Shown: positions 24,280 to 49,394, numbered from the stretch's first letter. The stretch is 64,000 nucleotides of DNA from Candidatus Omnitrophota bacterium (GCA_026387335.1 JAPLLX010000002.1:13326-77325); one strand, 5' to 3'. Notes: generated from the sequence alone by a model not told the origin. Made by a program: numbers and translations.

Positions 24280-25277
24280 AAATAGCAGTAATCGGCGCAG
24301 GCGCCATAGGCAGTTTAGTCGCGGGTTACCTAAAATTAAAAGGCGAAGATGTATATCTTGTCGGCCATAGCGATGCGGTTAAGGCGGTAAGAGAAAACGG
24401 CCTTAAGATTTCCGGAAGACGCGGTGACTTTAAGGTTGAGTTAGGCATCTACGAGATGCTTATCTCCCAGCCGGAACTTTTAATACTGGCGACAAAAACC
24501 CAGGATATTGAGCAGGCGCTCAAAGACAATCTTGGCCTGATTAAAGAGACCGTTGTTTTGACTACGCAGAACGGTATTCAGGCGGAGAAGATAGTTGCCG
24601 GGTTTATCCCTAAAAGTAATATTTTCTCAAGCATAGTGATGTTCGGCGCTACTTATTTAGAGCCGGGTAAAGTTGTGCATAACTTTGAAGGTAGCTGGGT
24701 TTTAGGGAGCATATTCTCTGAGATAACTGACCCCCGGATGCTTTCCTTAAGCCTGGTTTTGAATAAGGCGTTTCCCGCGGTTATCAGTAATGAGATAGCT
24801 GAGATGAAATACCTGAAGATCTTTGTCAATGCCAACAATTGCATCCCGGCTATATTAGGGGTAAGTATGCAGGAAGCCTTTCTCTCTCCCGAAGTGAGCA
24901 AAATAAGCATAGCTATCTGGAAAGAAGGTTTTCAGATAATATCAAAATTAGGGATTAAACTGGCTTCTCTGCCGGGTTTTCCGATAGAAAATATAACCCG
25001 GCTTATTTCCGTACCCAGCGATGAGGCCGCTAAAGTTTTCTCAGGGATCATGAGCAAATTAAGCAAGGATCCGCTCTACGGATCGATTTTACAGAGCATT
25101 AAAAGGGGAAGGTCCTCAGAGATCGATTACATCAACGGAGAATTTGTAAATTTAGCCGATGAGCACGGGCTAAAAGCGGACTTAAACCGAAAGTTAGTTC
25201 AGATGGTGCATGAAGTTGAAAAAACAAAGAGATTTTTTACCAAGGATGAGTTCTTAAGCGCGGTTAAGGATTATTAA
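24276..25277 (+). CDS. ApbA/PanE (ketopantoate reductase) family NAD(P)-dependent oxidoreductase
   Basis: Rossmann N-terminus MKIAVIGAGAIGSLVAGYL and the ApbA_C region SSEIDYINGEFVNLADEHGL. Confidence 0.7.
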   Translation: MKIAVIGAGAIGSLVAGYLKLKGEDVYLVGHSDAVKAVRENGLKISGRRGDFKVELGIYEMLISQPELLILATKTQDIEQALKDNLGLIKETVVLTTQNGIQAEKIVAGFIPKSNIFSSIVMFGATYLEPGKVVHNFEGSWVLGSIFSEITDPRMLSLSLVLNKAFPAVISNEIAEMKYLKIFVNANNCIPAILGVSMQEAFLSPEVSKISIAIWKEGFQIISKLGIKLASLPGFPIENITRLISVPSDEAAKVFSGIMSKLSKDPLYGSILQSIKRGRSSEIDYINGEFVNLADEHGLKADLNRKLVQMVHEVEKTKRFFTKDEFLSAVKDY

Positions 25278-25283
25278 ACTAAA

Positions 25284-25880
25284 ATGTCTGGAGTAAGTTC
25301 ACCTTTCCCAAAACTAAAACTCACGGTTAGCGCAGTTGCGGGCGTTTGTTACCACGGATATAAAGCCGGCGATGAGATTATCCTGGAAGATTTTACGCAT
25401 CCGCCTAAGCATTTTTGCCTGGGGCTGGCCCACGCGTTATTTCCCGTCATATACGCTTTAAGTTTCGGCGCTAAATTCGGCTTCCGCGATAATCAGCGTT
25501 CGCTGCTGGTGACTTGTCCTGACGGAGGGAAGCTGGAATTTAAAGCCGAGATTTTAGACAAAGACGGCAAGGTGGAAACTTTAGCTAAAGACCCGAATCA
25601 TAAATTTAATCCTAAAAAGATGGTCATTGAAGTGGTTAAGGCAAAAGGAAAATGCACATTTGGGTATAAGGTGGGAGATAAATGGGAGACTCTGGGGTTA
25701 AAATGCATACCCGGATTCTGCGGCGCGGCGTTTCATACCGCTTTTCCGGCGCTGTTTGCCTTAAATTTCGGAGCTAAGTTTTTCTTTATGGATAATCCGG
25801 ATGCGATTGATACCGTAACCTGCCCTGATGGAGGGAACATTGTTTTTAAGGTAACGAGAGTAGAAGAGGAGAAAAAATAA
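25284..25880 (+). CDS. Tandem-duplicated small Cys/His-rich domain protein (each repeat about 90 aa; resembles what I recall of the TIGR04076 family)
   Basis: Internal repeat visible by eye: CYHGYKAGDE...HFCLGLAHALFPVIYALSFGAKFGF.DN...VTCPDGGKLEFK, then CTFGYKVGDK...GFCGAAFHTAFPALFALNFGAKFFF.DN...VTCPDGGNIVFK. Confidence 0.4.
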   Translation: MSGVSSPFPKLKLTVSAVAGVCYHGYKAGDEIILEDFTHPPKHFCLGLAHALFPVIYALSFGAKFGFRDNQRSLLVTCPDGGKLEFKAEILDKDGKVETLAKDPNHKFNPKKMVIEVVKAKGKCTFGYKVGDKWETLGLKCIPGFCGAAFHTAFPALFALNFGAKFFFMDNPDAIDTVTCPDGGNIVFKVTRVEEEKK

Positions 25881-25884
25881 TTTT

Positions 25885-27147
25885 ATGAATAAACGTAGAG
25901 TAGTGATTACGGGAATCGGAGTAGTTTCTCCTAATGGTATCGGTAAAGATAAAGTTTATCAGGCGATGTGTAACGGCGTATCCGGGATAAGGCGGGTAGA
26001 TGGTTTTGATGTCTCGGTATTTAATACCAAGATTGCCGCCGAGGTGCGGGATTTTGATCCGTTCAAATTAGGGCTTAACCATGACGAAGCTGTGCGTATG
26101 GATAGATACGTGCAGTTTGGAGTCGTCGCCGGAAATATGGCAATTAAGGATAGCGGGATTGATTTTTCTAAAATTGACCCCGGGCGCGTAGGGGTTTGCC
26201 TGGCCAACGCTATCTGCGGGACAAAATATATGGAAGAAGAATTTGCCTTCGTAACCGACGACGGTAAAAATCCCATTGATCCGTCAAAGGTCAGGCCGGA
26301 CCTCTATGATGCGGCGATGTTTAATACGCCTTCCATTGAATTATCGGCCAAATACCATCTTAAGGGAATATGCAACACTCTTTCTACGGGTTGCACAGCC
26401 GGGACTGACGCGCTCGGATTTGGCCTGGAGACCATCCAGGACGGCGAGGAGGATGTTATGATTTGCGGCGCTGCCGAAGCTCCGATTACGCCGATTACTT
26501 TTGGCGCGTTTGATGTGGTGAATGTTTTATCCTGCCGCAATGATGACCCGCAAGGGTCAAGCCGCCCTTTTGATAATAAGCGTGACGGTTTTGTCTTAAG
26601 CGAAGGCGCCGGGATTTTAATCTTAGAGGAGTTAAACCACGCGTTGAAACGCAACGCCCGCATTTATTGCGAAGTTTTAGGATTCGGCACTAGCTGTAAC
26701 GCCTTTCATATGACTGACCTTCCCGGAGACGGAGACGCTATGACCAACTGTATAACCCTGGCCTTAAAAGATTCCGGGATCAAACCGCGGGAGATAGACT
26801 ATATCAGCGCCCACGGTTCCAGCACCAAGATGAACGATATATTTGAAACTAATGCTTACAAGACAGTTTTTGGCGACTACGCCTATAAGCTTCCCATAAG
26901 CTCGCTTAAATCTATGATCGGCCATCCCTTAGCCGCGGCCAACGCCGTTGAGCTTACCGTATGTTCAATGATTTTTGAGAAGAATATCCTTCCGCCGACC
27001 ATCAACCAGGAAGAAAAAGACCCTTTATGCGACTTGAATTACATTCCGAATAAGGCCATTGAAAAGAAAGTAGACACCATTATTAAAACCAGCTCGGGTT
27101 TTTCCGGGATTCATTCTTCGTTGATATTAAGGAGATATAGTGGATAA
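25885..27147 (+). CDS. Beta-ketoacyl synthase, catalytically complete (KS-alpha / FabF-like; Cys-His-His-Lys present)
   Basis: Active-site Cys in LSTGCTAGTDALG, His1 in AFHMTD, His2 in ISAHGSST, Lys in LKSMIGHPLAAANA (GHxxGAAG-like). Confidence 0.85.
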   Translation: MNKRRVVITGIGVVSPNGIGKDKVYQAMCNGVSGIRRVDGFDVSVFNTKIAAEVRDFDPFKLGLNHDEAVRMDRYVQFGVVAGNMAIKDSGIDFSKIDPGRVGVCLANAICGTKYMEEEFAFVTDDGKNPIDPSKVRPDLYDAAMFNTPSIELSAKYHLKGICNTLSTGCTAGTDALGFGLETIQDGEEDVMICGAAEAPITPITFGAFDVVNVLSCRNDDPQGSSRPFDNKRDGFVLSEGAGILILEELNHALKRNARIYCEVLGFGTSCNAFHMTDLPGDGDAMTNCITLALKDSGIKPREIDYISAHGSSTKMNDIFETNAYKTVFGDYAYKLPISSLKSMIGHPLAAANAVELTVCSMIFEKNILPPTINQEEKDPLCDLNYIPNKAIEKKVDTIIKTSSGFSGIHSSLILRRYSG

Positions 27148-28366
27148 AATAGCGGTTACAGGCATAGGCATAGTTAGCCCTTCAGGGATAAATAAAAGGC
27201 AATTTTGGGCGAATATAAAAGCCGGCCGCTCTTTTGTCAAAGAGATTACCCGCTTTGACGCTTCCAAATACCCATCACGTATCGCCGGTCAAATTGACGA
27301 ATTAAATAAATACAGCAATATTTCCGAGAGGCTGCTGAAAAAAATCGACGCCTTTTCGCACATGGCCCTGATCGCCTCGGAATTAGCGCTGCAGGACGCC
27401 GGAATTGATATAAAAAATGAAGACCCGAACTTAGTCGGCATATTTTTAGGCAACGCTATCGGCGGCTGGCTTTATGCCGAGACTGAGCTACGCGATTTGT
27501 ATATTGAAGGCCGCGAGGGAGTATCGCCCTATATGGCTTCAGCTTGGTTTCCCGCCGCGCCGCAAGGCCAGGTATCCATTTATTACGGTATCAAAGGTTT
27601 TTCTAAAACAGTAGTCGCGGACAGGGCCAGTTCCTTGATGGCTTTAGGTTACGCCCGAAAAGTCTTAAATAAAAATAAACTTAATATGATTTTATCCGGC
27701 GGAATGGAAGCGCCGGTTACGCCCTACGCTCTTTTATGCTGCAGCACTTACGGAGCTCTTTCCAAAAATAATGCTCGTCCCCAAGAAGCTTACCGGCCTT
27801 TTGATAAAAAGCGCGACGGTTGCGTGATTGGCGAAGGCGCCGGAATCGTGGTTATGGAGAGCATCGCGCGCGCGGCTAAAAGAGGGGTAAAGCCGTTGGC
27901 TTATATTTCAGGATACGCCGCGACCTGCGACGGGCTAGACCGGATTAATTGCGCCAGCGACGGTAAGGAGTTAGCCCGGGCGATTACCTTAGCGCTGGCT
28001 GACGCAAAAACTAACGCCGGCGAAATTGATTACATAAGCTTAGACGGACTGGCCCTGGATTTATGGGATAACTCCGAGTTAAGCGCGATAAAAAGTATTT
28101 TTAAAGAAAGGGCAAAGGATATTCCGCTGAGTTGCCCTAAATCCATGTTTGGGAATTTGCTGGGAGCCTCGGGAGTAGTGGATATGATTACTACTATTTT
28201 GGCAATGGAGAATAATCTTATACCGGTTACCTTAAATTTGGAGGAGCCCAGCGTTAAAGGGTTTAATTATGTTACTAAAGAAGCAAAGGAACATAAAATA
28301 AATAAGGCCTTGGTAATCTCGCGCGGAAGAGGCGGGATAAATTCGGTCTTAGTAGTGGAAAAGTAA
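27140..28366 (+). CDS. KS-beta / chain-length-factor-like ketosynthase paralog lacking the catalytic Cys and both His
   Basis: KS fold (N-terminus MDKIAVTGIGIVSP). The Cys position reads VVADRASSL, His1 is YISLDGLAL, His2 is KSMFGNLLGASG (His to Asn). 8-nt overlap with the KS-alpha gene. Confidence 0.7.
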   Translation: MDKIAVTGIGIVSPSGINKRQFWANIKAGRSFVKEITRFDASKYPSRIAGQIDELNKYSNISERLLKKIDAFSHMALIASELALQDAGIDIKNEDPNLVGIFLGNAIGGWLYAETELRDLYIEGREGVSPYMASAWFPAAPQGQVSIYYGIKGFSKTVVADRASSLMALGYARKVLNKNKLNMILSGGMEAPVTPYALLCCSTYGALSKNNARPQEAYRPFDKKRDGCVIGEGAGIVVMESIARAAKRGVKPLAYISGYAATCDGLDRINCASDGKELARAITLALADAKTNAGEIDYISLDGLALDLWDNSELSAIKSIFKERAKDIPLSCPKSMFGNLLGASGVVDMITTILAMENNLIPVTLNLEEPSVKGFNYVTKEAKEHKINKALVISRGRGGINSVLVVEK

Positions 28367-28384: not shown

Positions 28385-29845
28385 ATGAAGATTTTATTTG
28401 TTATGCCGAAAGTCGGAGCCTGGGCAACGCACGGAATACACCGTTCACCAAATCAGCTCTACGCCCATTGGGCAGCGTACGCGCGCGAAAGAGGGTATGA
28501 GGACGTAGCGGTTATAGACGGTAAGGCTGACCAGATACCTATGGAGCAGTTGGTTGAGCAGGTAAAGCAGAAGAATCCCGATATCGTGGTCATGGGCGAA
28601 CAGCTGCACGGTTATGGCGGCTACGGAGTTTTACGCCATTTTAAGGATGCCGCCGCCGGTATAAAAAAAGCGCTTCCTAAAACAAAAATTATTCTGGGCG
28701 GGTTATGGTATTCGGCAATGCCCGTACCGACATTAGAGGAAAATCCCGCTGTAGATTTTGTAGTGATGGGCGAAGAGGAGTCTTTTGGGGACCTGATTGA
28801 AGCAATAGATAAAAATAAGCCTCTTAAAGACGTGGGTGGAGTAACTTCGCGCATTGATGGCCAAATCGTTATGGGGCCGCATAAACCGTTGCTGGAAGAT
28901 TTGGATAAGTTACCCCTGCCGGCTTATGATTTGTTTCCTATGGATAAATATGTGGGTCACACTTATTGGAAGCCTTTTGTGGATATGGTTACTTCCCGCG
29001 GATGTCCATCGGCTTGCACTTTTTGTTATGAATGGGACCAGTTTGACCCCCGCTCTCCGTCGGATTTCCTGAAGTGGCGGGCTAAATCCCCGGAAAGAGT
29101 TATGGAAGAACTTAATCTTCTACACAGAAAATACGGGGTTAAAGTCGTGGTTATTCAGGATGATAATTTCAATGTCGATCCGGCGAGGGTGAAAAAATTC
29201 TGCGAGCTGAAGAAAGCGTCTAATAATCCGATTAAATGGGTTTCTCTGGGCCGGGCGATAGATTGGGTTAATTGCGAATCCATCCTGCCCTTAATGAAGG
29301 AAAACGGTTTATTTATGGGCGTTTTCGGCATTGAGGTTACCACTCAGTCAGAGCTTAAGAAAATCGCTAAAGGTATCACCATTGATCAGATCAAGAAAAC
29401 TATAGAGATGTTCCGTAAAAACGATATCGCCATTGTCGCCGATATTATGATGGGTTTTGATTATGATACCGAAGAAATTGTTAAGCAGCGTTTTGAGTTT
29501 ACTGACCAGGTGGACCCGGATGTCCTCTGGGTGGGTTATGTTACTCCCGCTCCGAATTCACCAATGTGGAGGATTGCTTTAAAGAAAAAGTGGATGGACC
29601 CTAAGAAGGTAGATTTTAGCCAATGGGACTTTTTGCATCCGGTAATTCCTACGGACCATCTTTCCACAGAAGACTTAGGGCGCCTGGGTTCATGGTGTAT
29701 GCGGGAATTTTTCTCCAAGCCCGGCCGCATTAATAGGATCATGGAGAGCAATTTTGATCCTTTGGCCAAGCTTTGTTTCAAGGATGTTATGGATGGTATT
29801 AACAAGTGGGAAGCAGCCGCGACCAAGGGCGAAGTGCAGATATAA
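28385..29845 (+). CDS. B12-binding radical SAM enzyme (class B rSAM)
   Basis: N-terminal cobalamin-binding-like Rossmann domain (MKILFVMP...IVVMG...IILGG), then the radical SAM cluster motif CPSACTFC (CxxxCxxC). 486 aa. RBS AGAGGAGG. Confidence 0.85.
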   Translation: MKILFVMPKVGAWATHGIHRSPNQLYAHWAAYARERGYEDVAVIDGKADQIPMEQLVEQVKQKNPDIVVMGEQLHGYGGYGVLRHFKDAAAGIKKALPKTKIILGGLWYSAMPVPTLEENPAVDFVVMGEEESFGDLIEAIDKNKPLKDVGGVTSRIDGQIVMGPHKPLLEDLDKLPLPAYDLFPMDKYVGHTYWKPFVDMVTSRGCPSACTFCYEWDQFDPRSPSDFLKWRAKSPERVMEELNLLHRKYGVKVVVIQDDNFNVDPARVKKFCELKKASNNPIKWVSLGRAIDWVNCESILPLMKENGLFMGVFGIEVTTQSELKKIAKGITIDQIKKTIEMFRKNDIAIVADIMMGFDYDTEEIVKQRFEFTDQVDPDVLWVGYVTPAPNSPMWRIALKKKWMDPKKVDFSQWDFLHPVIPTDHLSTEDLGRLGSWCMREFFSKPGRINRIMESNFDPLAKLCFKDVMDGINKWEAAATKGEVQI

Positions 29846-29860: not shown

Positions 29861-30097
29861 ATGGAGACAAAACAGAAAATTAAAGAAGTGCTGGTTGACC
29901 TGCTTAAGGTAAAGCCTGAAGAATTAAAAGATGCTGTTGCCTTGCAAGAGAGTATCGGCGTAGATTCTACCGAAATAGTGGAATCGGTTATCGCCCTGGA
30001 AAAGGCGTTTGGGGTGAAACTTAGCCCGAAAGAGATTACCAAGTCTTCCAGTATAGACGATATCGCGATAGTTGTGCAGTCCAAACTTAAAGCCTAA
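29861..30097 (+). CDS. Acyl carrier protein
   Basis: 78 aa; phosphopantetheine-attachment motif GVDSTEIVESVIALEKAFG (DS- Ser). Confidence 0.8.
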   Translation: METKQKIKEVLVDLLKVKPEELKDAVALQESIGVDSTEIVESVIALEKAFGVKLSPKEITKSSSIDDIAIVVQSKLKA

Positions 30098-30895
30098 ATG
30101 AAGATAATTGACTTAAGCCTTCCTATAGACGATAAGGCGTTTGAAGTCCACAAGGTAGCCATTGAACGGGTGACCCATAAGGCGGGAGTGGAGAAATTTA
30201 ACCGCGTGATTATGGGGAAAACTCTCTCCGGGAGGATCAAGTATCTCCTCGGTAAGCGCATACTTAAGAAAGAAGACCTGCCTGACGAGGAATTTTTATC
30301 GCTGGAAATAGTGCATTCTCCTGTTCACATCGGCACCCACCTGGATTACTCATTCCATTACGGCTCAAAATCAGAGGGTAGGCCTTCCAAGACCGCGGAA
30401 GATATCCCGCTGGAATATTGTTATCAGGATGGCGTTAAGCTGGATTTGACCCACAAAAAACCCAACGAAACAATTTCATCAACTGACATTGAAGCGGCGC
30501 TCTCAAAAATCAATTATAAATTAAAACCTTGGGATATTGTTTTCCTATTTACCGGAGCGGATAAGTTTTACGGCTCCCCGCAGTATTTCTCGGATTATCC
30601 GGGAATTGATATTTCGGCGATAGATTATCTTCTAGATAGAGGGATAAAGATTTTTGGCGTAGATACTATGGGCATAGACAGGCCATACAGGTTTATGTTA
30701 AAAGAGTTCTTAGAGAAAAAAGACCCTAAGGCGCTCTACCCGGCGCATTTCTACGGCAGGAAAAGAGAGTTTATCCATATTGAAAGGCTGGCGAATTTAG
30801 AAAAACTTCCGGCTTTCGGATTTAAGGTAATTTGTTTTCCGGTAAAGATTAAACAGACCGGAGCAGCATGGTCGAGAGTAGTTGCCATATTATAA
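30098..30895 (+). CDS. Putative cyclase family protein (PF04199, kynurenine-formamidase-like metal-dependent cyclase/hydrolase)
   Basis: Signature HSPVHIGTHLDYSFHYG (HxGTHxDxPxH-type). The start abuts the ACP stop. Confidence 0.7.
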   Translation: MKIIDLSLPIDDKAFEVHKVAIERVTHKAGVEKFNRVIMGKTLSGRIKYLLGKRILKKEDLPDEEFLSLEIVHSPVHIGTHLDYSFHYGSKSEGRPSKTAEDIPLEYCYQDGVKLDLTHKKPNETISSTDIEAALSKINYKLKPWDIVFLFTGADKFYGSPQYFSDYPGIDISAIDYLLDRGIKIFGVDTMGIDRPYRFMLKEFLEKKDPKALYPAHFYGRKREFIHIERLANLEKLPAFGFKVICFPVKIKQTGAAWSRVVAIL

Positions 30896-30906
30896 GGGAG
30901 GTTAAG

Positions 30907-31347
30907 ATGGGACATACTTGTAATTCAATTATAATTAACGCGCCGTATGATCTGGTTTTTGATATTTCTAACGATATACCGCGTTGGACTGAATTATTCG
31001 GAAGTGAATACAAGAAAGCGGAGATTGTAAAAAGAGAAGAGAATAAGATTACTTTTCGCCTGACCGATGATGAGGATAAATCCTGGATTTCCTGGAGGTT
31101 ATTGTTTAAGGATAAATTTTTTACTTATTCCGAAAGGCAGGAGCCGAAATTTCCGTTTAAATATATGAAGATCGTCTGGCTCTATACGCAAAAGCCGGAA
31201 GGAACAGCGCTAACCTGGATACAACATTTTGAAATGGACGACAAAGCTAAATTTAACGATGAGCAGGTAGAAGGTTTTATCAACAAGCATTCCAAAGACA
31301 ATCTTTTAATTTTTAAGAATGTGATTGAAAAGGCAGCAGCAAAGTAA
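30907..31347 (+). CDS. SRPBCC / Polyketide_cyc2-like small protein (aromatase/cyclase-like lipid-binding fold)
   Basis: About 145 aa; SIIINAPYDLVFDISNDIPRWTELF is a START/Bet v1-like N-terminal beta-strand pattern. GGGAGG RBS before the ATG at 30907 (the ORF track's 30868 start overlaps the previous gene). Confidence 0.45.
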   Translation: MGHTCNSIIINAPYDLVFDISNDIPRWTELFGSEYKKAEIVKREENKITFRLTDDEDKSWISWRLLFKDKFFTYSERQEPKFPFKYMKIVWLYTQKPEGTALTWIQHFEMDDKAKFNDEQVEGFINKHSKDNLLIFKNVIEKAAAK

Positions 31348-31363
31348 TTTTAGGAGGTAACCC

Positions 31364-32140
31364 ATGAATCAGGAATTAAAAGGTAAGGTAGCGATTGTAA
31401 CAGGAGCCAGCCGGGGTATTGGTAAGGCCCTGGCCTGCACCGCGGCAAGTCTTGGGATTAATTTAGCTATTGCCGCCCGCGGCGAAGGACCGTTAAAAGA
31501 AACAGCTGATGAGATCGCCAAGAAATACAAGGTAGATGTATTAGCTGTTCCTTGTGATGTCACTAAATTAGAAGATTTAGAGAATTTGGTGAACAAAGCC
31601 AAGGAAAAATTTGGTAAAATCGATATTTTGATCAATAACGCCGGAGTTTCATCCCAATATCCATTCCAGGAGCAGCCGATTGAGGATTTTGAAAGGCTGG
31701 CCCATACGAATTATTTAGGATATGTGCGCCTGATCCGTTTGGTTATTAACGATATGATTAAGAATAAGTCCGGGGCGATAATCAATATGGTTTCCGGCTC
31801 AACCCTTTGCGACCCGCTACCAAGGAATTTTATCGTCTATAGTTCGCTTAAAGTCGGTTTACGCGCTTTTTCCAAGGGCCTTTTCTGGGAACTACGCGAC
31901 CACGGTATAAAAGTAACTTCGATATTGCCCGGAGTTACGGACACTGATCTGACCGGTAAATTAAAAGAGATTACCAGCCAAACTTCCAGGCTGATGAGCA
32001 CCGAGGCAATTGAAGACGCGGTGAGGTTTGCTCTGACCGTGCCAGCGAATGTCTGTCCGTTAGAGATTGCCGTAATTAATCAACAGACACCCTGGACCGC
32101 GCCGGTAATACCATTTGAGCAGAAGCATCCCGGGAAATAA
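31364..32140 (+). CDS. Short-chain dehydrogenase/reductase (ketoreductase-like SDR)
   Basis: TGASRGIG cofactor motif, NNAG, catalytic S...YxxxK (YSSLK). Confidence 0.85.
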   Translation: MNQELKGKVAIVTGASRGIGKALACTAASLGINLAIAARGEGPLKETADEIAKKYKVDVLAVPCDVTKLEDLENLVNKAKEKFGKIDILINNAGVSSQYPFQEQPIEDFERLAHTNYLGYVRLIRLVINDMIKNKSGAIINMVSGSTLCDPLPRNFIVYSSLKVGLRAFSKGLFWELRDHGIKVTSILPGVTDTDLTGKLKEITSQTSRLMSTEAIEDAVRFALTVPANVCPLEIAVINQQTPWTAPVIPFEQKHPGK

Positions 32141-32142
32141 AA

Positions 32143-32171
32143 ACACCCGGCCCTATCGGATGGGCCGGTGT
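32143..32171. repeat. Conserved hairpin D copy 1 (ACACCCGGCCC-TATCGGAT-GGGCCGGTGT), possible operon-end terminator
   Basis: 7-bp GC stem with an 8-nt loop immediately after the SDR stop. A covarying copy is at 62428-62455. Confidence 0.5.
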
Positions 32172-32199
32172 TGTCCTGGTGGACAAAAGGAGAGAACTG

Positions 32200-32805
32200 A
32201 TGAAAAGAATGATTTTGGCGGTAGTACTATTCTTAAGCGTTACAGGAATATGCTTAGCGGCTGAGAATTTATTGATTGATGATTTTGAGGTAGCTGTCTC
32301 CGGAGGCCTGGAAGGAACAGTTGACTTTGGCGCTGGTAACGGTTCATCCGTAAATGTAACCGCAGCTACGGATATTAAAAATACGGGAAAGCAGTCTTTA
32401 AAAGTTGACTATGATGCTGTCCCCGGAGGATATATCTATGTTGCCAAAGGTAAGGGCCTAGATGCCAAGAATACTGAGTGGCTAGTTAAGCCTGAAGATA
32501 TTAAGTGGGAAGATTATAAGGCGTTCTCATTCTATATGTATGGCACGGATTCTAAAGCTAGGATAGCTTTTGACATTAAAGACAACGGAGATGAGCTTTG
32601 GCGTTTTGTGGTCGAGGATAATTTTAATGGCTGGAAGCAGATTGTCTGCGACTTTGATAAATTCTTAGTCCGTGACGACTGGCAGCCTAACAGTTCCGAT
32701 AAAAACGCGAAAATTGATTTTCCGATAAAGATCTTTCAGCTTGAGCCGTTGCCTGCGTCAAAAGGCACGCTTTATTTTGATACCGTAGAATTGGTTAAAA
32801 AATGA
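32200..32805 (+). CDS. Secreted beta-sandwich protein (carbohydrate-binding-module-like), hypothetical
   Basis: Signal peptide MKRMILAVVLFLSVTGICLA after an AGGAGA RBS. The rest is Gly/Asp/aromatic-rich, consistent with a beta-sandwich. No confident family. Confidence 0.3.
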   Translation: MKRMILAVVLFLSVTGICLAAENLLIDDFEVAVSGGLEGTVDFGAGNGSSVNVTAATDIKNTGKQSLKVDYDAVPGGYIYVAKGKGLDAKNTEWLVKPEDIKWEDYKAFSFYMYGTDSKARIAFDIKDNGDELWRFVVEDNFNGWKQIVCDFDKFLVRDDWQPNSSDKNAKIDFPIKIFQLEPLPASKGTLYFDTVELVKK

Positions 32806-33197
32806 TGAACAAACTGGATTTAAAAAATTTGAAAAAACGCTACCTCATCTGGTTTTATAAAACTACCAGAGAGGCGCTGGATAAAATTGAACGCAAATTT
32901 ACGCAAAGCGAAATCGACCGCTTTATCTTAAAAGAGCTTAAAAGAGCTGATAAGGAGAAAGCCGCCGAATCTTTTATCGCCCAATTTGAGGAGTATATCC
33001 GGAAAAAAGAACAGGATGGGTTGAGCTTAAAATTTGAGAATAAAAAGCCAAAGCCGCATTATGTATTCCTGGTTTTAAAGCTGGAGGCGATCCAGAAGGC
33101 TATCGTGAAGGAATTAGGGAAAAAAGCGCTGGAAGAGATAAAGTTACTTTATGAAATAGAGATGACTGAGCGTATATTAAGGAATACGGAACACTAA
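32802..33197 (+). CDS. Hypothetical protein (charged, helical)
   Basis: ORF with 4-nt overlap to its neighbour; no motif recognised. Confidence 0.25.
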   Translation: MMNKLDLKNLKKRYLIWFYKTTREALDKIERKFTQSEIDRFILKELKRADKEKAAESFIAQFEEYIRKKEQDGLSLKFENKKPKPHYVFLVLKLEAIQKAIVKELGKKALEEIKLLYEIEMTERILRNTEH

Positions 33198-33198
33198 A

Positions 33199-34107
33199 AT
33201 GATTATTGACAGCCATAGCCATTGGTTGCCGGAAGGCATAATCAACAACGCTCATTTTTATCATAAGGGTTGGGGTGATATTGAGGCTCAACTTAAGATG
33301 ATGGATGAGGCAGGAATTGATAAGGCGGTTTTGTCATATCCGACAACCGACGCGCACCTAAAGTTGGGCAGTATATCCGAAGTCGTGCGCATATTTAATG
33401 ACCATGTCGGCAAAATCATTCAAATTTATCCGGATAGGTTTATCGGCGCGGCGATCCTCCCGATAGATCACCAACCGGATATGCTTAAAGAGCTAAAACG
33501 CGCGACCGAAGAATTAGGTTTTAAGGCCGTGTCTCTAGCGACCAGTTACGCCGGAATTTATTTGGACGACGCAAGATTCCTGGAAGTATACAAGATCGCG
33601 CAAAGCCAAAACTTGCCGATTTTTGTACACTCACAGATTGTAAAACCGATAGGCAGCGAGCGCGTAGAGGACCCGTTGCTTACGCCGGTGATTGAATATG
33701 TCTTTGATACGACGATGTGCATAGGCAAACTCTTAATGGCGGATATTTTACGCGATTATAAAGTGAAATTTATCTTTGGTTACTTTGGCGGAGTAACGCC
33801 ATTCCTGGCGAATAGATTTGACGCGACCTATCAGATGCTGCGAGGAATGAATTTTGTTAAGGATTTAGGAGCTAACCCCAGCGAATACTTAAAAAATATT
33901 TATGTGGATACCAGCGGAGATAAGACGCAAGCGAATTTCTCGGCGGCGCTGGAATTATTAGGGCCCAAGCATATTTTATGGGGGAGCGACTGGCCGGCGA
34001 AGAAAGACATCGCTACAGGAATCCAAGCAGTCAAAAACTTAGCAATATCCGATGCGGATAAAAATAATATTTTAGGCGGTAATTTAGCTAGTATATTAGC
34101 TCTTTAA
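33199..34107 (+). CDS. Amidohydrolase-2 family (PF04909) metal-dependent hydrolase/decarboxylase
   Basis: N-terminal IIDSHSHWLPEG (HxH metal ligands); TIM-barrel length; the ...WGSDWP Asp near the C-terminus. Confidence 0.65.
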   Translation: MIIDSHSHWLPEGIINNAHFYHKGWGDIEAQLKMMDEAGIDKAVLSYPTTDAHLKLGSISEVVRIFNDHVGKIIQIYPDRFIGAAILPIDHQPDMLKELKRATEELGFKAVSLATSYAGIYLDDARFLEVYKIAQSQNLPIFVHSQIVKPIGSERVEDPLLTPVIEYVFDTTMCIGKLLMADILRDYKVKFIFGYFGGVTPFLANRFDATYQMLRGMNFVKDLGANPSEYLKNIYVDTSGDKTQANFSAALELLGPKHILWGSDWPAKKDIATGIQAVKNLAISDADKNNILGGNLASILAL

Positions 34108-34983: not shown

Positions 34984-35003
34984 AGGTGATAATTCTATTT
35001 TAG

Positions 35004-35112
35004 CGGGTGACACGGTGACGGATTCCTTACTTTCCCGCAGGGCGAATGCCCGAGGACAAAGTAAGGTGGCACCGTGGCAGGACCCGCTGAATCAGGCGGG
35101 CTAGAGCAAGCG
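35004..35112 (+). ncRNA. Structured 5' leader (candidate riboswitch or cis-regulatory RNA) upstream of the salvage operon
   Basis: Nested complementary segments: GCGGGTG...CACCCGC (outer), CACGGTG/CACCGTG, CTTACTTT/AAAGTAAG, GGGCG/CGCCC. Class not identified. Confidence 0.3.
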
Positions 35113-35145
35113 TAAGGGTATAATAAAAATAAAGGAGAATCCAAT

Positions 35146-35895
35146 ATGCAGATGGTTAAGGATATACATTTAACAGGTAAGGACTTGACGGATATGGTGC
35201 AGTTGAGGCCACAGGACGTAGGCAAATACGCGATTGTCCCCGGCCCAAAAGACAGGCTGGAGACCTTAATCAAGAAAATTGAAAATCCGGTGCGGAATTT
35301 TTCATTTATGGAATACACGATGTACACCGGGACATTTGAAGGGATAAAGCTTAGCGCGATTAACGGCGGAAGGTTCTCCACCGATACTTCCATCACGACT
35401 GAGGTAATGTGCAACGCGAAAATTGAGAATATAATCCGCGTAGGAACCGCCGGCAGCCTGGACGAGAATATAAAAGTAGGGGATTTATTCGTGGTAGATG
35501 AAGTAATCCGCGGCGATGGAGTTACCCCTTATTATGTAAATAAAGATTTTAAAACTGTCGCGGATAAGAAAATTTCCGATACGCTTTATCAGGTTGGTAA
35601 AGATATGGGCTTGACTATCCATCGCGGCAAGGCCTGGACAACGGATGCGCTCTTACGCGAGACCAGAGAAATCGTGGAAGCCAAGCGTAAAGAGGGAGCA
35701 AGAGTAGTAGATATGGTTTCTTCAACCTTATTAACTATCGCGCAAACTTATAATATCAAGGCCGGTTCAATTTTAGCGGTCAGTGATAATGTCGTAACCG
35801 GTGAAATGGGCTTTATGAATCCTTTATATTATATGGCGGAGTCTAATATCTTAAAGATAGCCTTGGAAGCAGTTAAAAAATTAGAGGGAAAATGA
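35146..35895 (+). CDS. PNP/UDP-family nucleoside phosphorylase (candidate 5'-deoxyadenosine / MTA phosphorylase)
   Basis: Uridine/purine phosphorylase fold signatures: ...YTGTFEGIKLSAINGG...RVGTAGSL...GDLFVVDEVIRGDG. Confidence 0.7.
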   Translation: MQMVKDIHLTGKDLTDMVQLRPQDVGKYAIVPGPKDRLETLIKKIENPVRNFSFMEYTMYTGTFEGIKLSAINGGRFSTDTSITTEVMCNAKIENIIRVGTAGSLDENIKVGDLFVVDEVIRGDGVTPYYVNKDFKTVADKKISDTLYQVGKDMGLTIHRGKAWTTDALLRETREIVEAKRKEGARVVDMVSSTLLTIAQTYNIKAGSILAVSDNVVTGEMGFMNPLYYMAESNILKIALEAVKKLEGK

Positions 35896-36818
35896 AATTT
35901 TCTCCATTATTTTGGCCGATCCAGTTTAAGAACGGCATAATTTATATTCTTGACGAAACTCTTCTGCCCCAGAAACTTGCTTATATAAAGGCCAGGAATT
36001 ATAAAGAGGCCTGTCGCGCTATCAAAGAGATGAAGACTCGGGCTGTAGGCCAAGTGCTCCTGGTGATGTATATTTTTCTGCAGTTGGTTAAACAAAAAAA
36101 ACAAAAAGATTTAGTTAAGGTTGCTAAAGTCGTAAATGCTACTCGTCCGACTCTCTCTTTTAAATTTTTAACCGATATGGTTTTAGGTTGGGCAAAGAGC
36201 AGGGTCCCTTTAGAAAAATGCATTCTGGGATTCCTGGAAGGCTTGAAATGCAGCCGTATCAGGCAGGCAGAAGAGGCCTCCAAATTAATTAAAAACGGGG
36301 ATGTAATACTTACGCATTGCAATATCAGCGGGCTGATGCCTTTAATAGCTGAATTTTGCGCTAGAGAAGGCAAAGGAGTAAAATTTTTCGCGACGGAAAC
36401 CCGGCCATATCTACAAGGTTCGCGCTTAACTGCCTGGGAATTAAAACGGCAGGGTTTTGACGTGACCTTGATTACCGACGGGATGGTGGCCGCGGTTATG
36501 TCTCAAGGGAAAGTGAATAAGGTTATTGTCGGAGCCGACCATTTAGCCCAAAACGGCGACATTGCCAATAAAATCGGCACTTACGCTATAGCGGTGTTAG
36601 CCCGGCATTTTAAGATACCTTTTTATGTTTTATGCCCGCCGGCTTCAGGGTTAAAAAGCGGGAAAGATATTAAGATCGAGATACGTCCGGATAAAGAAAT
36701 GTTAGAGTATCAGGGCTTGCGCCTGGCGCCCAAAGGGGTAAAAGGATATTACCCGGCATTTGATGTTACTCCTAATGGATTAATTACTAAACATATACCT
36801 TTGGAGATTAAAAGATGA
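35892..36818 (+). CDS. MtnA/eIF-2B family sugar-phosphate isomerase (5-(methylthio/deoxy)ribose-1-phosphate isomerase-like)
   Basis: eIF-2B alpha/beta/delta family pattern: ...VIVGADHLAQNGDIANKIGTYAIAVLARHFKIPFYV. Confidence 0.7.
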   Translation: MKFSPLFWPIQFKNGIIYILDETLLPQKLAYIKARNYKEACRAIKEMKTRAVGQVLLVMYIFLQLVKQKKQKDLVKVAKVVNATRPTLSFKFLTDMVLGWAKSRVPLEKCILGFLEGLKCSRIRQAEEASKLIKNGDVILTHCNISGLMPLIAEFCAREGKGVKFFATETRPYLQGSRLTAWELKRQGFDVTLITDGMVAAVMSQGKVNKVIVGADHLAQNGDIANKIGTYAIAVLARHFKIPFYVLCPPASGLKSGKDIKIEIRPDKEMLEYQGLRLAPKGVKGYYPAFDVTPNGLITKHIPLEIKR

Positions 36819-37816
36819 TTTTCGGTAAAGAGCGAAAGATAAAAAATGAAATAATTAAAGTTGGGAAACGGCTTTATCAAACCGGCCTGACTGTGGCTAA
36901 ATCCGGGAACTTAAGCGCAAGGCTGGATAATGAGAATATCCTTATCACGGCTACCGGGACATCTCTGGGAAATCTAAAATATAAAGATATCGTGAAAGTT
37001 AATTGGCAATCCGGCGAAACACGCGGTGGAATCAAGCCCAGTTCGGAGCTGCCTTTACATATTTTGGTTTATAAAAACTTCGGCGCCCGGGCAGTTATCC
37101 ACGCTCACCCGTCTTTAATCAACGGGTATTTCGCGGTTACCTCGGATTTAAAGGCTTTAACTTTTGAGACTAAATTTTATCTTGGCAATGTTCCGGTAAT
37201 CGAACAGGATACGCCTACTGTGACTAAGCCTGAAGCGGTAATAAGCGCGTTAAAGGTAAATAATCTGGTCGTCCTTAAGAATCACGGCATAGTCGCTATC
37301 GCGGATAAATTTTGCGACGGCCTGAATCTGGCCGAAGCGTTAGAAGAGGCTGTGCGCTCTCTGGCAGTTGCCAGAATATTTGATAAAAGCGTGCTTGATG
37401 ATTTGGATAAAGCGCTAAAGCAGGAGCTTACGCAGAACGCCCGCTTACCCATGTTTTCTAAAGACCATATCCAGGCGATTGTAGATCTGGTAAATAAGGA
37501 TGAATTCATCGCTCAAAAAGGGAGAGAGTTGGATTTGACGCTGAAACTTGCCATAAAATTAGACGGGAGCGATAAGGCCTATAAATTTAATTTTGAAAAA
37601 GGTAAAATCATAAGATTGGATTTTGACGCTGACGCGCCATTTGTAATTTCAGCTCCTGCCGAGGTTTGGGAACAGGTTTTTTTAGGAAAACTTGATTGTT
37701 TCGTGGCGGTTACACAGGGAAAGATGAAGCTATCCGGCCAGTTGGGGCAGCTCTCTAAGTGGTATGTGCCTTTTACCCGGCTGTTCGGGATATTTAAGGA
37801 AGTAAAAATAAAATGA
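36815..37816 (+). CDS. Class II aldolase/adducin-family enzyme fused to a C-terminal SCP2-like domain (MtnB/fuculose-P-aldolase-like)
   Basis: The N-domain GLTVAKSGNLSARLD and HAHPS metal-binding His are typical of class II aldolases. The C-terminal about 100 aa ...FNFEKGKIIRLDFDA...GKMKLSGQLG resembles SCP2 sterol-carrier domains. Confidence 0.65.
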   Translation: MIFGKERKIKNEIIKVGKRLYQTGLTVAKSGNLSARLDNENILITATGTSLGNLKYKDIVKVNWQSGETRGGIKPSSELPLHILVYKNFGARAVIHAHPSLINGYFAVTSDLKALTFETKFYLGNVPVIEQDTPTVTKPEAVISALKVNNLVVLKNHGIVAIADKFCDGLNLAEALEEAVRSLAVARIFDKSVLDDLDKALKQELTQNARLPMFSKDHIQAIVDLVNKDEFIAQKGRELDLTLKLAIKLDGSDKAYKFNFEKGKIIRLDFDADAPFVISAPAEVWEQVFLGKLDCFVAVTQGKMKLSGQLGQLSKWYVPFTRLFGIFKEVKIK

Positions 37817-39300
37817 TCCAAAGTTATCCGCTGTACATAAATGGAAAATTTATCGAAACCAAAGAAAAGCAGAGCATTATTAATCCTTCAACTGGGAAGG
37901 TGATCGCTGAGGCCTCGCTTGCCTCCTTAAAAGAGGTAGAGTTAGCGTTAGATAGCGCGCGTTCCGCTTTTGATAAAGGAGAGTGGTCGCGGTTACCATC
38001 GGAGCAGCGAAAGAAATTTATTTCCCGGATTGCCCAGGGTATCTTAGATAATGCGGGAGAGCTAGCGGAATTAGAGAGCGTTAATACCGGAAAGCCGATC
38101 AAGGAAACTACTTTTATGGATATTCCTTCAGCGGCCAAGGCCTTTGAGTACGCGGCTAATAATTTTGAAAGTTTCTTAACGGCTGAAGATTTAAAAATAT
38201 CTGAAGAGGCAAAAGCAAATTTACGCCGCGAGCCAGTCGGGGTGGTAGTTTTGATCATCCCCTGGAATTACCCGCTTTTAATCGCCTGTTGGAAGTTAGC
38301 CTCGGCTTTAGCCGCCGGTAACACTGTGGTATTAAAACCTTCCAGCCTTACTCCTTTAAGCGCCCTTAAATTGGCGCAGATCCTCCATGAGGCAGCTCTT
38401 CCTGCGGGAGTAGTAAATGTGATTAACGGAAGCGGCCCGAAAATCGGCGAAGTCCTATGTAGCGATAAAAGAGTGGATATGGTCTCTTTTACCGGAAGCA
38501 ATGAGACAGGCAGGCAGATCTTAGAGTATTCCTCCGCAAATATTAAGAAATCGATTATGGAGTTGGGTGGTAAAAGCGCGAGTTTAATTTTTAGCGATTG
38601 CGATATAGATACCGTGGTAAATAGTTCGCTTTGCTCAATATTCCTCAACCAGGGCCAGATGTGCACAGCTATGTCGCGTATATTTATCCAGGATAAAATA
38701 TATGATAAATTTGTGGCTAGTTTCGTCCAAAAGGCCAAAGCCTTAAAGCTGGGGGTGGCCCAAGCCCATGAGACTCAAATGGGGCCGTTAATCAGCGATA
38801 GCCAGCGGAAAAAAGTTATTGCCTATATTGAAAAAGCCCGGGCCGAGGGCGCGAAAATATTATGCGGCGGAAAAATTCCGCAAAATCCGGAACTAAAAAA
38901 CGGGTATTTCTTTGAGCCAACGGTTATGGCTAATGTCAGCGCGCATATGCATATTTTTAGAGAAGAGGTATTTGGCCCGGTTGCTATTGTGGGTAAGTTT
39001 TCCGACGCTAACCAAGCCGTAGAGTTGGCTAACGCCAGCGATTTTGGCCTGGCCTCCTGCATCTGGACTAAAGACACTGCTTTTGCCCAAAATTTAGCCG
39101 AACAAATTAATTCCGGGGTCGTCTGGATAAACACTTACGGAATGTTTTATAATCAGCTTCCTTACGGCGGGTTTAAGAGAAGCGGTTTTGGCAAGGAATT
39201 GGGCAGGGAGGGGTTCTTAGAATACACCCGGCTTAAGAATATAGTTATTGACCAGTCACTAGACAATAAGCCCTTGGTTAGCCACTGGTATGGATTTTAA
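37813..39300 (+). CDS. NAD(P)+ aldehyde dehydrogenase
   Basis: Catalytic Cys in NQGQMCTAMSRIF, general-base Glu in MELGGKSA, GSxxTG cofactor motif FTGSNETG. Confidence 0.9.
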   Translation: MIQSYPLYINGKFIETKEKQSIINPSTGKVIAEASLASLKEVELALDSARSAFDKGEWSRLPSEQRKKFISRIAQGILDNAGELAELESVNTGKPIKETTFMDIPSAAKAFEYAANNFESFLTAEDLKISEEAKANLRREPVGVVVLIIPWNYPLLIACWKLASALAAGNTVVLKPSSLTPLSALKLAQILHEAALPAGVVNVINGSGPKIGEVLCSDKRVDMVSFTGSNETGRQILEYSSANIKKSIMELGGKSASLIFSDCDIDTVVNSSLCSIFLNQGQMCTAMSRIFIQDKIYDKFVASFVQKAKALKLGVAQAHETQMGPLISDSQRKKVIAYIEKARAEGAKILCGGKIPQNPELKNGYFFEPTVMANVSAHMHIFREEVFGPVAIVGKFSDANQAVELANASDFGLASCIWTKDTAFAQNLAEQINSGVVWINTYGMFYNQLPYGGFKRSGFGKELGREGFLEYTRLKNIVIDQSLDNKPLVSHWYGF

Positions 39301-39303
39301 ATA

Positions 39304-40023
39304 ATGAGAGTTGTCTTATCTATATTATTTTGGATAGGTAGCACCGTAATAACAATAATATTATTTTGCGTTGTTTTTGTTGTCGTTATAACCACCTTTC
39401 CTTTTGATAAAAAAAGGAAGATCGCCCACGCCCAGTGTTTCTGGTGGTCGTCCTGCGTTCTCAAGATGAATCCGTTCTGGAGATTAAGCGTCAAGGGGCT
39501 AGAGAATATTGACCGGAATAAAACCTACGTGATCATCGCCAATCATCAGAGCATGGCCGATATAGCCGTGCTTTATAAGACCCATATGCAGTTTAAGTGG
39601 GTCGCTAAAGACGGCCTTTTTAAAGTTCCTTTTATCGGATGGTGTCTCTCTCTAACTAAACATATAAGTTTAGAGCGCGGGGAGTTCGCCAGTATAAAAA
39701 AAGTTTACCGGGAAGCGGCCCAGTGGCTGCGTAAAGATATGTCGGTATTATTTTTCCCTGAAGGCACCCGCAGCGATACGGATAAAATGAACGTTTTCCA
39801 AAACGGCGCCTTTAAGCTGGCGATAAAAGAAAAGAAACCCGTGCTTCCTATCCGTATTAGCGGTACCCGCGACGCTATCTCTAAAGGGAGTTGGGTATTT
39901 AAAACAAAAGTTTCTACGACTATTACTGTATTGCCGGCTATTGATACGAGTTCATTAAACCCGGGCGATTTCGCTAGTTTACGGAATGCGGTTTTTAACA
40001 AAATAGCAGGAGGCGCGTTATGA
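39304..40023 (+). CDS. plsC: 1-acyl-sn-glycerol-3-phosphate acyltransferase (PlsC/LPLAT family)
   Basis: HxxxxD motif IIANHQSMAD, FPEGTRS block, N-terminal TM helix. Confidence 0.8.
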   Translation: MRVVLSILFWIGSTVITIILFCVVFVVVITTFPFDKKRKIAHAQCFWWSSCVLKMNPFWRLSVKGLENIDRNKTYVIIANHQSMADIAVLYKTHMQFKWVAKDGLFKVPFIGWCLSLTKHISLERGEFASIKKVYREAAQWLRKDMSVLFFPEGTRSDTDKMNVFQNGAFKLAIKEKKPVLPIRISGTRDAISKGSWVFKTKVSTTITVLPAIDTSSLNPGDFASLRNAVFNKIAGGAL

Positions 40024-42700: not shown

Positions 42701-42712
42701 GCCGCTTCTCTT

Positions 42713-45510: not shown

Positions 45511-45513
45511 GCT

Positions 45514-47532: not shown

Positions 47533-47594
47533 TAGGGACAGCGACCATTTTTCTTGGTCGCAGAGAAGAGAAAAATGGTCGCTGTCCCTATTTA
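47531..47594. repeat. REPIN copy 7
   Basis: Overlaps the purU stop TAA. Identical to copy 8, including the loop CTTGGTCGCAGAGAAGAG. Confidence 0.9.
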
Positions 47595-49328: not shown

Positions 49329-49387
49329 GGACAGCGACCATTTTTCTTGGTCGCAGAGAAGAGAAAAATGGTCGCTGTCCCTATTTA
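49324..49387. repeat. REPIN copy 8
   Basis: Identical to copy 7. Confidence 0.9.
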
Positions 49388-49394
49388 TCATAAG

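Follow-up and report, generated by a model that had tools for sequence, protein, structure and literature searches.

A putative DHAP-shunt-type module with an aldolase-SCP2 fusion inside an orphan radical SAM lipid cluster of Candidatus Omnitrophota

We analysed a stretch of 64,000 nucleotides from a Candidatus Omnitrophota bacterium (GCA_026387335.1 JAPLLX010000002.1:13326-77325), here called the window, with attention to four overlapping genes that encode a nucleoside phosphorylase, an isomerase, an aldolase fused to an SCP2 domain (aldolase-SCP2) and an aldehyde dehydrogenase (ALDH), and to the hairpin in their leader. We regard it as about an even call that these genes form a module of the dihydroxyacetone phosphate (DHAP) shunt type inside a PadR-associated orphan radical S-adenosylmethionine (SAM) lipid cluster, with the hairpin as one copy of a dispersed family. 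A sequence-only reading of the same DNA had described a self-contained salvage operon for 5'-deoxyadenosine or methylthioadenosine (MTA), lying merely beside a radical SAM (rSAM) cluster and preceded by a metabolite-sensing leader. Its gene families and its link to a radical SAM enzyme held up, the link more strongly than had been claimed, while the module turned out to be part of the cluster and the sensing leader was not borne out.

Results

Enzymes of the module

The four plus-strand open reading frames (ORFs) overlap consecutively by 4 nt each, and Pfam matches confirmed the family named for each in the sequence-only reading (Table 1). In aldolase-SCP2 the aldolase domain covers residues 1-~195 and the SCP2 domain residues ~215-333, and an SCP2 domain is also annotated (precomputed) in many homologues. 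Catalytic residues were intact by alignment across the module enzymes. The proposed enzyme logic was upheld as well, with phosphorylase, isomerase, class II aldolase and ALDH fitting the published 5-deoxyribose/DHAP route (PMC6079011).

Among NCBIfam models the phosphorylase scored best on uridine phosphorylase (113.7 bits, cutoff 280), and the DeoD models were likewise below their cutoffs. The MTAP model (TIGR01694) gave 22.3 bits against 274.85, so the protein is not of the MtnP type and lacks the MtnP/MtnK character of the first enzyme of the DHAP shunt; the MTAN model gave 48 bits and HpnG, a PNP_UDP_1 member, a weak 44.5 bits (cutoff 187). Aligned with E. coli uridine phosphorylase, the protein keeps the equivalents of Gly26, Arg30, Arg91 and Thr94, which we take to be the phosphate residues, and an insertion with Gln166 and Arg168, presumably the uracil ligands, is deleted. 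An SDN motif stands where DeoD has SDH, the motif with catalytic Asp204, and a purine-type Asp is thus present. DMV replaces EME, exchanging for Val the Glu that presumably binds the ribose 2'/3'-OH, and Arg48 is replaced by Met. His8, which we take to contact the 5'-OH, is kept, as read by eye from the N-terminus in a stretch outside the computed alignment. All these signature features were invariant over five clades at 40-60% identity. By its sequence, the phosphorylase is a distinct purine-type subfamily with an altered sugar site. The sequence-only reading had named strict uridine specificity as a test of its proposal; a uridine phosphorylase is ruled out by the deleted Gln166/Arg168 loop, and the purine-type Asp points the same way.

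The isomerase scored 198.6 bits on TIGR00524 (eIF-2B_rel/MtnA subfamily; cutoff 185.85) and 226.9 bits on the MtnA equivalog model (cutoff 279). It matched structure 1t9k at 4.7e-51 with identity at the THCN and GAD..NGD motifs, presumably the sites of the catalytic Cys and Asp, and so carries both residues expected of the MtnA-family isomerase of the DHAP shunt. The aldolase domain has a PSSE motif, H96xH98 and H157, invariant across the family, as in class II metal-dependent aldolases. It was equidistant from YgbL/OtnC, FucA, the MtnB-like aq_1979 and DrdA; clustering with the fuculose/rhamnulose aldolases, the second test named beforehand, was not seen, FucA being no nearer than DrdA or YgbL. 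The predicted structure of aldolase-SCP2 shows an alpha/beta C-terminal domain behind a low-confidence linker, and a fold search with this model returned matches to the aldolase domain only, among them the DrdA structure 6btd. The motifs PWNYP, ELGGKS and GQMCTA were readable in the ALDH, marking it as the hydrolytic type; it was equidistant from betaine aldehyde dehydrogenase (BADH), ALDH2 and retinal dehydrogenases, a comparison that does not narrow its substrate class.

Linkage of the module to the rSAM cluster

A scan of genomes gave 80 loci. Almost all carry Omnitrophota titles, and some metagenome-assembled genomes (MAGs) are labelled Planctomycetales or bacterium. The order phosphorylase, isomerase, aldolase-SCP2, ALDH is kept in these loci, with median identities of 85%, 72%, 73% and 70%, respectively, and the ALDH gene directly follows aldolase-SCP2 in 74 of the 80. 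Homologues of aldolase-SCP2 numbered more than 100 at 73-98% identity, and all with a source name were Candidatus Omnitrophota MAGs. Upstream synteny extends in the same order and strand through a B12-binding rSAM (B12-rSAM) gene and those for an acyl carrier protein (ACP), a cyclase, an SRPBCC protein, a short-chain dehydrogenase/reductase (SDR), a CBM11-like protein, a 131-aa protein and an Amidohydro_2 protein to the phosphorylase; the five genes from the cyclase to the 131-aa protein were seen in 26-51 of the 80 loci with their order kept. Just 11-31 nt separate the Amidohydro_2 and phosphorylase genes in ten genomes, and the ancestral state therefore looks like one long operon.

More distant homologues came from a search of 1.8 billion cluster representatives; at E<=1e-30 it matched 44 proteins, of which about 25 are full-length fusions of aldolase and SCP2 (32-40% identity). 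In the distant clades the gene order is shuffled and the gene set retained. L201 and L202 belong to a second clade of the fusion protein, in which the members with a name are Omnitrophota; they read PadR, acyl-AMP ligase, phosphorylase (one or two copies), IF-2B isomerase, small IF-2B, aldolase-SCP2, ALDH, B12-rSAM, KPR-like reductase, two ketosynthases (KS), ACP, cyclase, SRPBCC (Pfam-assigned only in L201) and a major facilitator superfamily (MFS) transporter. The order in L204 is B12-rSAM, ligase, phosphorylase, isomerase, small IF-2B, aldolase-SCP2. L205 has MMPL, phosphorylase, isomerase, B12-rSAM, small IF-2B, aldolase-SCP2 and ALDH, with the rSAM gene within the module, and L206 has PadR, ligase, B12-rSAM, phosphorylase, isomerase, small IF-2B, aldolase-SCP2 and ALDH, with SRPBCC, KPR-like and KS genes beyond. 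Wherever a downstream gene is visible in these clades (L201, L202/L203, L205, L206/L207), ALDH again follows the fusion. Identities of 36-74% mark the rSAM, PadR, KPR-like, ALDH and isomerase proteins as orthologues throughout the L201-L206 contexts, and an rSAM orthologue adjoins the module in every clade examined. Linkage that outlasts the shuffling of gene order is a classical sign of functional coupling, which argues that module and B12-rSAM form one system.

We also observed a half-size IF-2B paralogue (141-180 aa), matching the C-terminal half of MtnA, directly upstream of aldolase-SCP2 in the distant clades, and two tandem phosphorylase genes in L202. The clade of the window has neither the tandem copy nor the small IF-2B.

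Gene content of the surrounding cluster

The second FabF-like protein of the cluster lacks the Cys/His/His triad and resembles a chain-length factor (CLF). Judged by its genes, which include a B12-rSAM, KS/CLF, ACP, ketoreductase, cyclases and an acyl-AMP ligase, the cluster appears to be of the kind that antiSMASH labels 'ladderane'. Clusters of FabF, an inactive FabF partner, ACP and B12-rSAM, including the anammox FabF/FabFmut pair (bioRxiv 10.64898/2026.05.19.726425), have been discussed as 'ladderane' clusters (PMC2649909; bioRxiv 10.64898/2026.05.19.726425), and antiSMASH 'ladderane' biosynthetic gene clusters of unknown role are reported from Omnitrophota, Desulfobacterota and other phyla (PMC9902471). 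By genes alone, the window shares FabF with a triad-less FabF, a dedicated ACP and a B12-rSAM with the anammox cluster, but its rSAM falls far below the TIGR04072 cutoff (71 vs 360 bits); the second-best NCBIfam match of this rSAM is HpnJ (159 vs 578 bits). The terms aldolase, phosphorylase, isomerase and aldehyde dehydrogenase gave no match in the text of PMC2649909, the word 'aldolase' was absent in a term search of a recent Omnitrophota genome survey, and full-text literature searches returned no paper tying SCP2 to a class II aldolase.

The upstream operon had been called radical-SAM-rich, but among the ORFs scanned with Pfam or NCBIfam we found only one rSAM gene there, 5.3 kb upstream of the module. 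It had also been placed 1 kb away; its end does lie about 1 kb upstream, yet its last gene encodes the Amidohydro_2 protein. Between that gene and the hairpin is a 195-aa ORF with several hydrophobic stretches, for which we found neither a Pfam or NCBIfam match nor any homologue among the 80 related loci; it may have been inserted in this lineage alone, or be no gene at all.

Downstream, a PlsC-type acyltransferase gene follows ALDH in 13 of the 80 loci, and the acyl-AMP ligase of the window is 54% identical to the ligase adjoining the phosphorylase gene in L201. With a model for long-chain fatty-acid-CoA ligases, the L201 protein reaches 463 bits. Together with the SCP2 fusion and the exporters, the long-chain-type ligase and PlsC point to a hydrophobic partner. 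The ligase ORF of the window, with a TTG start, overlaps an RlmN-like rSAM gene by about 130 nt, and the alignment to the orthologue leaves out its first ~80 codons; the start is therefore doubtful and the ORF probably too long at the 5' end. Farther on, past PlsC and the gene for an HSP20 protein, the window encodes all parts of an efflux system: a TolC-like OEP, a HlyD-type adaptor, two ABC ATPases and two ABC-2 permeases. The set is syntenic in the related locus L002 and may export the cluster product.

A dispersed hairpin family in the leader

The 162-nt spacer before the phosphorylase gene contains a 93-nt hairpin of nested inverted repeats, and the nested complementary segments described earlier are thus real. 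Its minimum free energy was -57.5 kcal/mol (z = -3.84), and none of 200 dinucleotide shuffles folded as well. The outer helix P1 (GCGGGU/ACCCGC) is followed by a 3' AGG bulge and a GAC/GGC step with an A.G mismatch, and the interior consists of a long inner helix and an apical CCCGCAG-hairpin-CGAGGAC motif. Within 35083-35100, the CCCGC of the 3' arm can alternatively pair with GCGGG at 35096-35100 into a small, mutually exclusive hairpin; in the closest relative (L001) this pairing survives only in part, and the other copies lack it.

Elements of this family have conserved ends, GCGGGUG[AG]C and G[AG]CAGGACCCGC, around a variable inner hairpin. The core GCGGGUGRC...GRCAGGACCCGC was found in at least 120 metagenome contigs (L081-L200) of 37-75% GC, and hence in very different taxa, several of the contigs with two or three copies and in both orientations, such as L092 with three (2225-2289, 4632-4696, 4998-5062), whose inner sequences are near-identical to those in L102. 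High-GC copies also have flank motifs in common, CTCTNCC 5' of the element and GTCC(C)T 12-16 nt 3' of it. In low-GC loci the element is intergenic, often 6-20 nt past a stop codon. Relative to flanking tandem genes, 11 elements had the same and 10 the opposite orientation. No protein partner of the elements was identified, and no consistent Y1 gene lay nearby.

In the 56 loci with a readable upstream region, the element stood before the phosphorylase gene in sense in six and in antisense in two, while 48 had none; the conserved position and orientation upstream of a homologous operon that mark a riboswitch were accordingly not seen (8 of 56 loci). A near-identical 62-nt copy lies between the phosphorylase and isomerase genes in six genomes (two sense, four antisense), and further copies lie after Amidohydro_2 or elsewhere in Omnitrophota loci. 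The window itself has one copy. An Infernal/Rfam check, suggested in the sequence-only reading, gave no match in 34900-35250 even at E<=10, and scans of the whole window and of 15 element-bearing loci gave none at the element at the gathering threshold. A literature text search for the motif sequence returned nothing relevant, and we did not find the family described. With the element also occurring elsewhere in both orientations and the upstream gap reduced to 11-31 nt in ten genomes, the proposal of a metabolite-sensing leader was not supported.

The fold itself is well supported. The 143 distinct inner sequences fold with a median z of -5.0, and the purine-purine mismatch was G/A in 109 cases, A/G in 31, and G/G or A/A in 7. 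G.T pairs exceeded A.C pairs (79 vs 22), which points to one functional strand. MAFFT with RNAalifold on full-length elements recovered the outer helix P1 only, as the inner helices vary in length; positional pairing counts and a 45-nt mini-alignment of 67 sequences were used in their place. This gave 226 compensatory cells compared with 77.8 +/- 7.9 after shuffling, and a covariation score of 0.444 compared with 0.114 for shuffled and 0.05-0.08 for slid controls, where the core pairs are fixed by the search pattern and the flank and inner pairs alone are informative. The comparative alignment proposed for the leader thus confirmed covariation of the structure but not a conserved place before the operon, and the covariation supports a structured element, not ligand sensing.

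Several other identities were considered. An intrinsic terminator was rejected, the stem having T-rich sequence on its 5' side and A-rich sequence on its 3' side and the terminator scan being negative there. A miniature inverted-repeat transposable element (MITE) was likewise rejected, as the flanks of the element pair together instead of forming direct target duplications. It resembles repetitive extragenic palindromic (REP) elements as an intergenic, imperfect palindrome, often just past a stop codon, in either orientation and multi-copy on some contigs, but its 21-nt core is conserved over contigs of 37-75% GC while REPs are species-specific. Membership of a REP system with a REP-associated tyrosine transposase (RAYT) was not found either: there is a single copy in 64 kb, and the RAYT-like gene of the window is flanked by a different palindrome. 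The element's complement, GTCCTG|Y, may resemble MOBP nic sites. Overall, the hairpin is structured and dispersed, is found in either orientation and here fills a lineage-specific spacer; it is no operon-specific sensor. Its role would be at most that of a generic mRNA stabilising or processing element, and a single-stranded DNA (ssDNA) site for a recombinase or HUH enzyme was also considered.

Other features of the window

Eight palindromic doublets of the form TAGGGACAGCGACC...GGTCGCTGTCCCTA were observed, with 16 exact arm matches where 0.24 were expected by chance. A gene of the IS200/Y1 type has one of these doublets on either side; its sole NCBIfam match is REP-associated tyrosine transposase, with 64.5 bits against a cutoff of 80, and doublets and gene together look like a genuine REP/RAYT system. 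The doublets are unrelated in sequence to the leader hairpin and were absent from all 207 loci examined. In the ATP synthase operon, a 237-aa ORF matches both ATP-synt_B and delta/OSCP and appears to be a b-delta fusion. Two tRNA genes on opposite strands scored 60.8 and 53.9 bits; an ORF that overlaps one of them is probably mis-started.

Table 1. Coordinates of the module, its surroundings and other features; positions refer to the window unless a locus is named.
Feature	Coordinates	Strand	Remarks
PadR-family regulator	23379..23897	+	orthologues head the cluster in distant clades
KPR/ApbA-like reductase, TIGR04076 protein, FabF-like KS, second FabF-like protein	24276..28366	+	profile matches
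B12-binding rSAM, BchE/HpnJ-like	28385..29845	+	profile matches
ACP	29861..30097	+	profile match
Cyclase (PF04199), SRPBCC polyketide-cyclase-like, SDR ketoreductase, CBM11-like, 131-aa protein	30098..33197	+	five syntenic genes
Amidohydro_2 protein	33199..34107	+	immediately upstream of the phosphorylase gene in many relatives
195-aa ORF	34396-34983		TTG start
Nested hairpin	34999..35091	+	93 nt, inverted repeats
Phosphorylase	35146..35895	+	divergent nucleoside phosphorylase, hexameric UP/DeoD type; PNP_UDP_1 1.7e-33 (Pfam)
Isomerase	35892..36818	+	MtnA-like (5-deoxy/5-methylthio)ribose-1-phosphate isomerase, 308 aa; IF-2B 5.9e-54 (Pfam)
Aldolase-SCP2	36815..37816	+	class II metal-dependent aldolase domain; Aldolase_II (PF00596) 7.4e-33 (Pfam)
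Aldolase-SCP2 (same gene)	36815..37816	+	SCP2 lipid-binding domain, 23.8 bits (gathering score 21.3)
ALDH	37813..39300	+	NAD(P)+ aldehyde dehydrogenase, hydrolytic class 1/2/9-like; Aldedh 1.3e-168 (Pfam)
PlsC-type acyltransferase	39304..40023	+	
Efflux set	40498-46641		
Acyl-AMP ligase	49347..51104	+	TTG start
RlmN-like rSAM	50972-52003		profile match
Half-size IF-2B paralogue, distant clades	L201 9583-10008; L202 9481-9999; L204 9284-9826; L205 9157-9660; L206 9519-9989		
Palindromic doublets 1-4	1981-2041, 2796-2855, 4233-4290, 10737-10794		
Palindromic doublets 5-8	12056-12114, 13493-13551, 47533-47590, 49326-49383		
IS200/Y1-type gene	2125-2832		
Putative b-delta fusion	4303-5016		
Two tRNA genes	within 52667-52889	opposite	
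ORF overlapping a tRNA gene	52763-53839		

Discussion

A DHAP-shunt-type module in the rSAM lipid cluster would work as follows. A 5'-deoxyadenosine-type nucleoside from the cluster's own radical SAM enzyme would be the substrate, from which the purine-type phosphorylase would release the base to leave a 5-substituted ribose-1-phosphate. The MtnA-like isomerase would turn this into the ribulose-1-phosphate, the metal-dependent aldolase would split it into DHAP and an aldehyde derived from C4'-C5', and the ALDH would oxidise that aldehyde to an acid, with flux running in this direction. Aldehyde or acid would be hydrophobic, or handed on within the lipid pathway.

Known systems resemble the module in part. 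The 5-deoxyribose/DHAP shunt consists of DrdK or MtnP, a DrdI/MtnA paralogue, and DrdA/Ald2 (PMC6079011, PMC10986504). It too unites a phosphorylase, an MtnA-family isomerase and a class II metal aldolase in one operon, and an rSAM by-product is a logical source of its substrate; the window differs in having a phosphorylase of the hexameric UP/DeoD type in place of MtnP, an SCP2 fusion on the aldolase, an attached ALDH and a location within an rSAM/KS/CLF lipid cluster, whereas the shunt stands alone or with sugar transporters. The fluoroacetate route uses the identical four enzyme types, ALDH included, to convert a SAM-derived 5'-substituted adenosine into a substituted acetate usable in biosynthesis (PMC3999930), but its FlB is MtnP-like and the pathway has neither an SCP2 domain nor an rSAM enzyme. 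No fluorinase or chlorinase (SAM_adeno_trans) was found among the cluster ORFs scanned with Pfam, and the ORFs without a match (131, 195 and 216 aa) are too short for one. In the adenosylhopane (HpnH, HpnG, HpnJ) and futalosine (MqnE, MqnB) pathways, an rSAM enzyme makes an adenosyl adduct of a hydrophobic molecule and an enzyme of the PNP_UDP_1 family takes off the base. The window shares the PNP_UDP_1 family with them, and HpnJ ranks second among the NCBIfam matches of its rSAM, but both the HpnG and HpnJ scores are far below their cutoffs; these pathways also have no isomerase or aldolase step, and no rSAM of the HpnH or MqnE type was seen in the window.

The module might instead trim a biosynthetic intermediate, a possible but doubtful alternative. 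HpnH (adenosylhopane) and MqnE (aminofutalosine) attach a 5'-deoxyadenosyl group in a radical SAM step. In the same way, the rSAM enzyme of the cluster would attach 5'-deoxyadenosyl to an unsaturated acyl or polyketide chain, and the module would remove adenine and DHAP to leave a lipid aldehyde extended by two carbons; the SCP2 domain would hold this aldehyde, the ALDH would make it an acid, and the acyl-AMP ligase would reload it for KS/CLF or PlsC. Such a route would suit the invariant SCP2 fusion, the long-chain-type ligase, the rSAM gene interleaved with the module in L205, the nearby PlsC and MMPL, MFS or ABC exporters, and the altered ribose site and weak HpnG match of the phosphorylase. 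The cluster rSAM, however, is of the B12-binding BchE/HpnJ-like class, to which adenosylating rSAMs are not known to belong, and an HpnH- or MqnE-like gene was not seen. In that case the module would not dispose of a by-product but extend lipid carbon chains in a new way, with C4'-C5' of the SAM ribose, and, if true, this would account for the function of the orphan 'ladderane-type' clusters in Omnitrophota and other anaerobes; we consider it, and separately the idea that the hairpin is a new cross-phylum structured RNA or ssDNA element with its own protein partner, to be improbable enough to call speculative, though not far-fetched. A stand-alone housekeeping salvage operon for 5'-deoxyadenosine or MTA, with a metabolite-sensing leader and only chance proximity to the rSAM cluster, is considerably less probable and is already largely refuted by the comparative data. 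The enzyme trio with ALDH does match the known route (PMC6079011), the hairpin is strongly structured and its copies before the phosphorylase gene are mostly sense, but linkage to the rSAM cluster outlasts shuffling in five clades, 48 of 56 genomes lack the leader, and the element, besides having no Rfam match, sits between the phosphorylase and isomerase genes both ways and in unrelated contexts across phyla.

Two further readings, which we think very unlikely, concern the chemistry. One is general nucleoside catabolism, in which a purine nucleoside would yield ribose-1-phosphate, ribulose-1-phosphate (Ru1P), and then DHAP with glycolaldehyde and finally glycolate, in a shortened bacterial counterpart of the non-carboxylating pentose bisphosphate pathway of haloarchaea. 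The His for 5'-OH contact, read by eye, agrees with it, and FucA with AldA is a classical example of an aldolase paired with an ALDH. The aldolase domain also matches the Ru1P aldolase model NF053831 at 2.4e-18, but with 66 bits against a cutoff of 300, and the isomerase is nearer to MtnA than to R15P isomerase (240 vs 112 bits, NCBIfam); the linkage to rSAM, KS and ligase genes and the SCP2 domain would be left without a reason. There is a similarly slight chance that the class II domain is an MtnB-type dehydratase or OtnC-type decarboxylase, in which case the pathway would give neither DHAP nor an aldehyde. YgbL/OtnC is the closest solved structure, the NCBIfam matches include OtnC (96.6 bits) and MtnB (60-68 bits), and the metal and acid-base residues are common to the whole superfamily. 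Against this, the top NCBIfam matches are aldolase models (106.8 and 87 bits), the ALDH gene, directly next in 74 of 80 loci and in distant clades, fits an aldehyde product, and among most window ORFs of at least 110 aa up to 52.6 kb we matched no family of the later methionine-salvage enzymes.

The DHAP-shunt-type reading has its own difficulties. Its substrate is one that we infer, and the phosphorylase is neither MtnP- nor MTAN-like; with the ribose-binding Glu changed to Val and Arg48 to Met, it may not act on a normal nucleoside. Aldolase, MtnB-type dehydratase and OtnC-type decarboxylase are not separable by sequence, and 5-deoxyribulose-1-phosphate, small and hydrophilic, gives no reason for an SCP2 domain. 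One Omnitrophota clade of eight loci (L042, L050, L051, L053, L054, L059, L069, L075) has no phosphorylase gene, which in seven of them, all except L042, is replaced by a gene of ~270 aa resembling class IV aminotransferases and aminodeoxychorismate lyases. Finally, the sense copies of the hairpin upstream of the phosphorylase gene (6 to 9) leave room for a local role of the element. The gene order in the seven loci with the aminotransferase-like gene was observed to be B12-rSAM, Amidohydro_2 (40-43% identity), aminotransferase-like, isomerase, aldolase-SCP2, ALDH.

What is new here is an SCP2-aldolase variant of the DHAP shunt in what appears to be obligate association with an orphan rSAM lipid cluster, which extends the shunt to a new phosphorylase subfamily, and a cross-phylum, covariation-supported hairpin family without an Rfam match. 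The analysis also eliminates one spurious riboswitch candidate. In many anaerobic phyla not known to make ladderanes, genome mining calls 'ladderane-type' clusters (PMC9902471). The aldolase-SCP2 fusion can serve as a signature gene for finding clusters of the present kind, and the association described here gives a testable hypothesis for them, that SAM-derived nucleoside carbon may be processed inside a 'ladderane-type' pathway.

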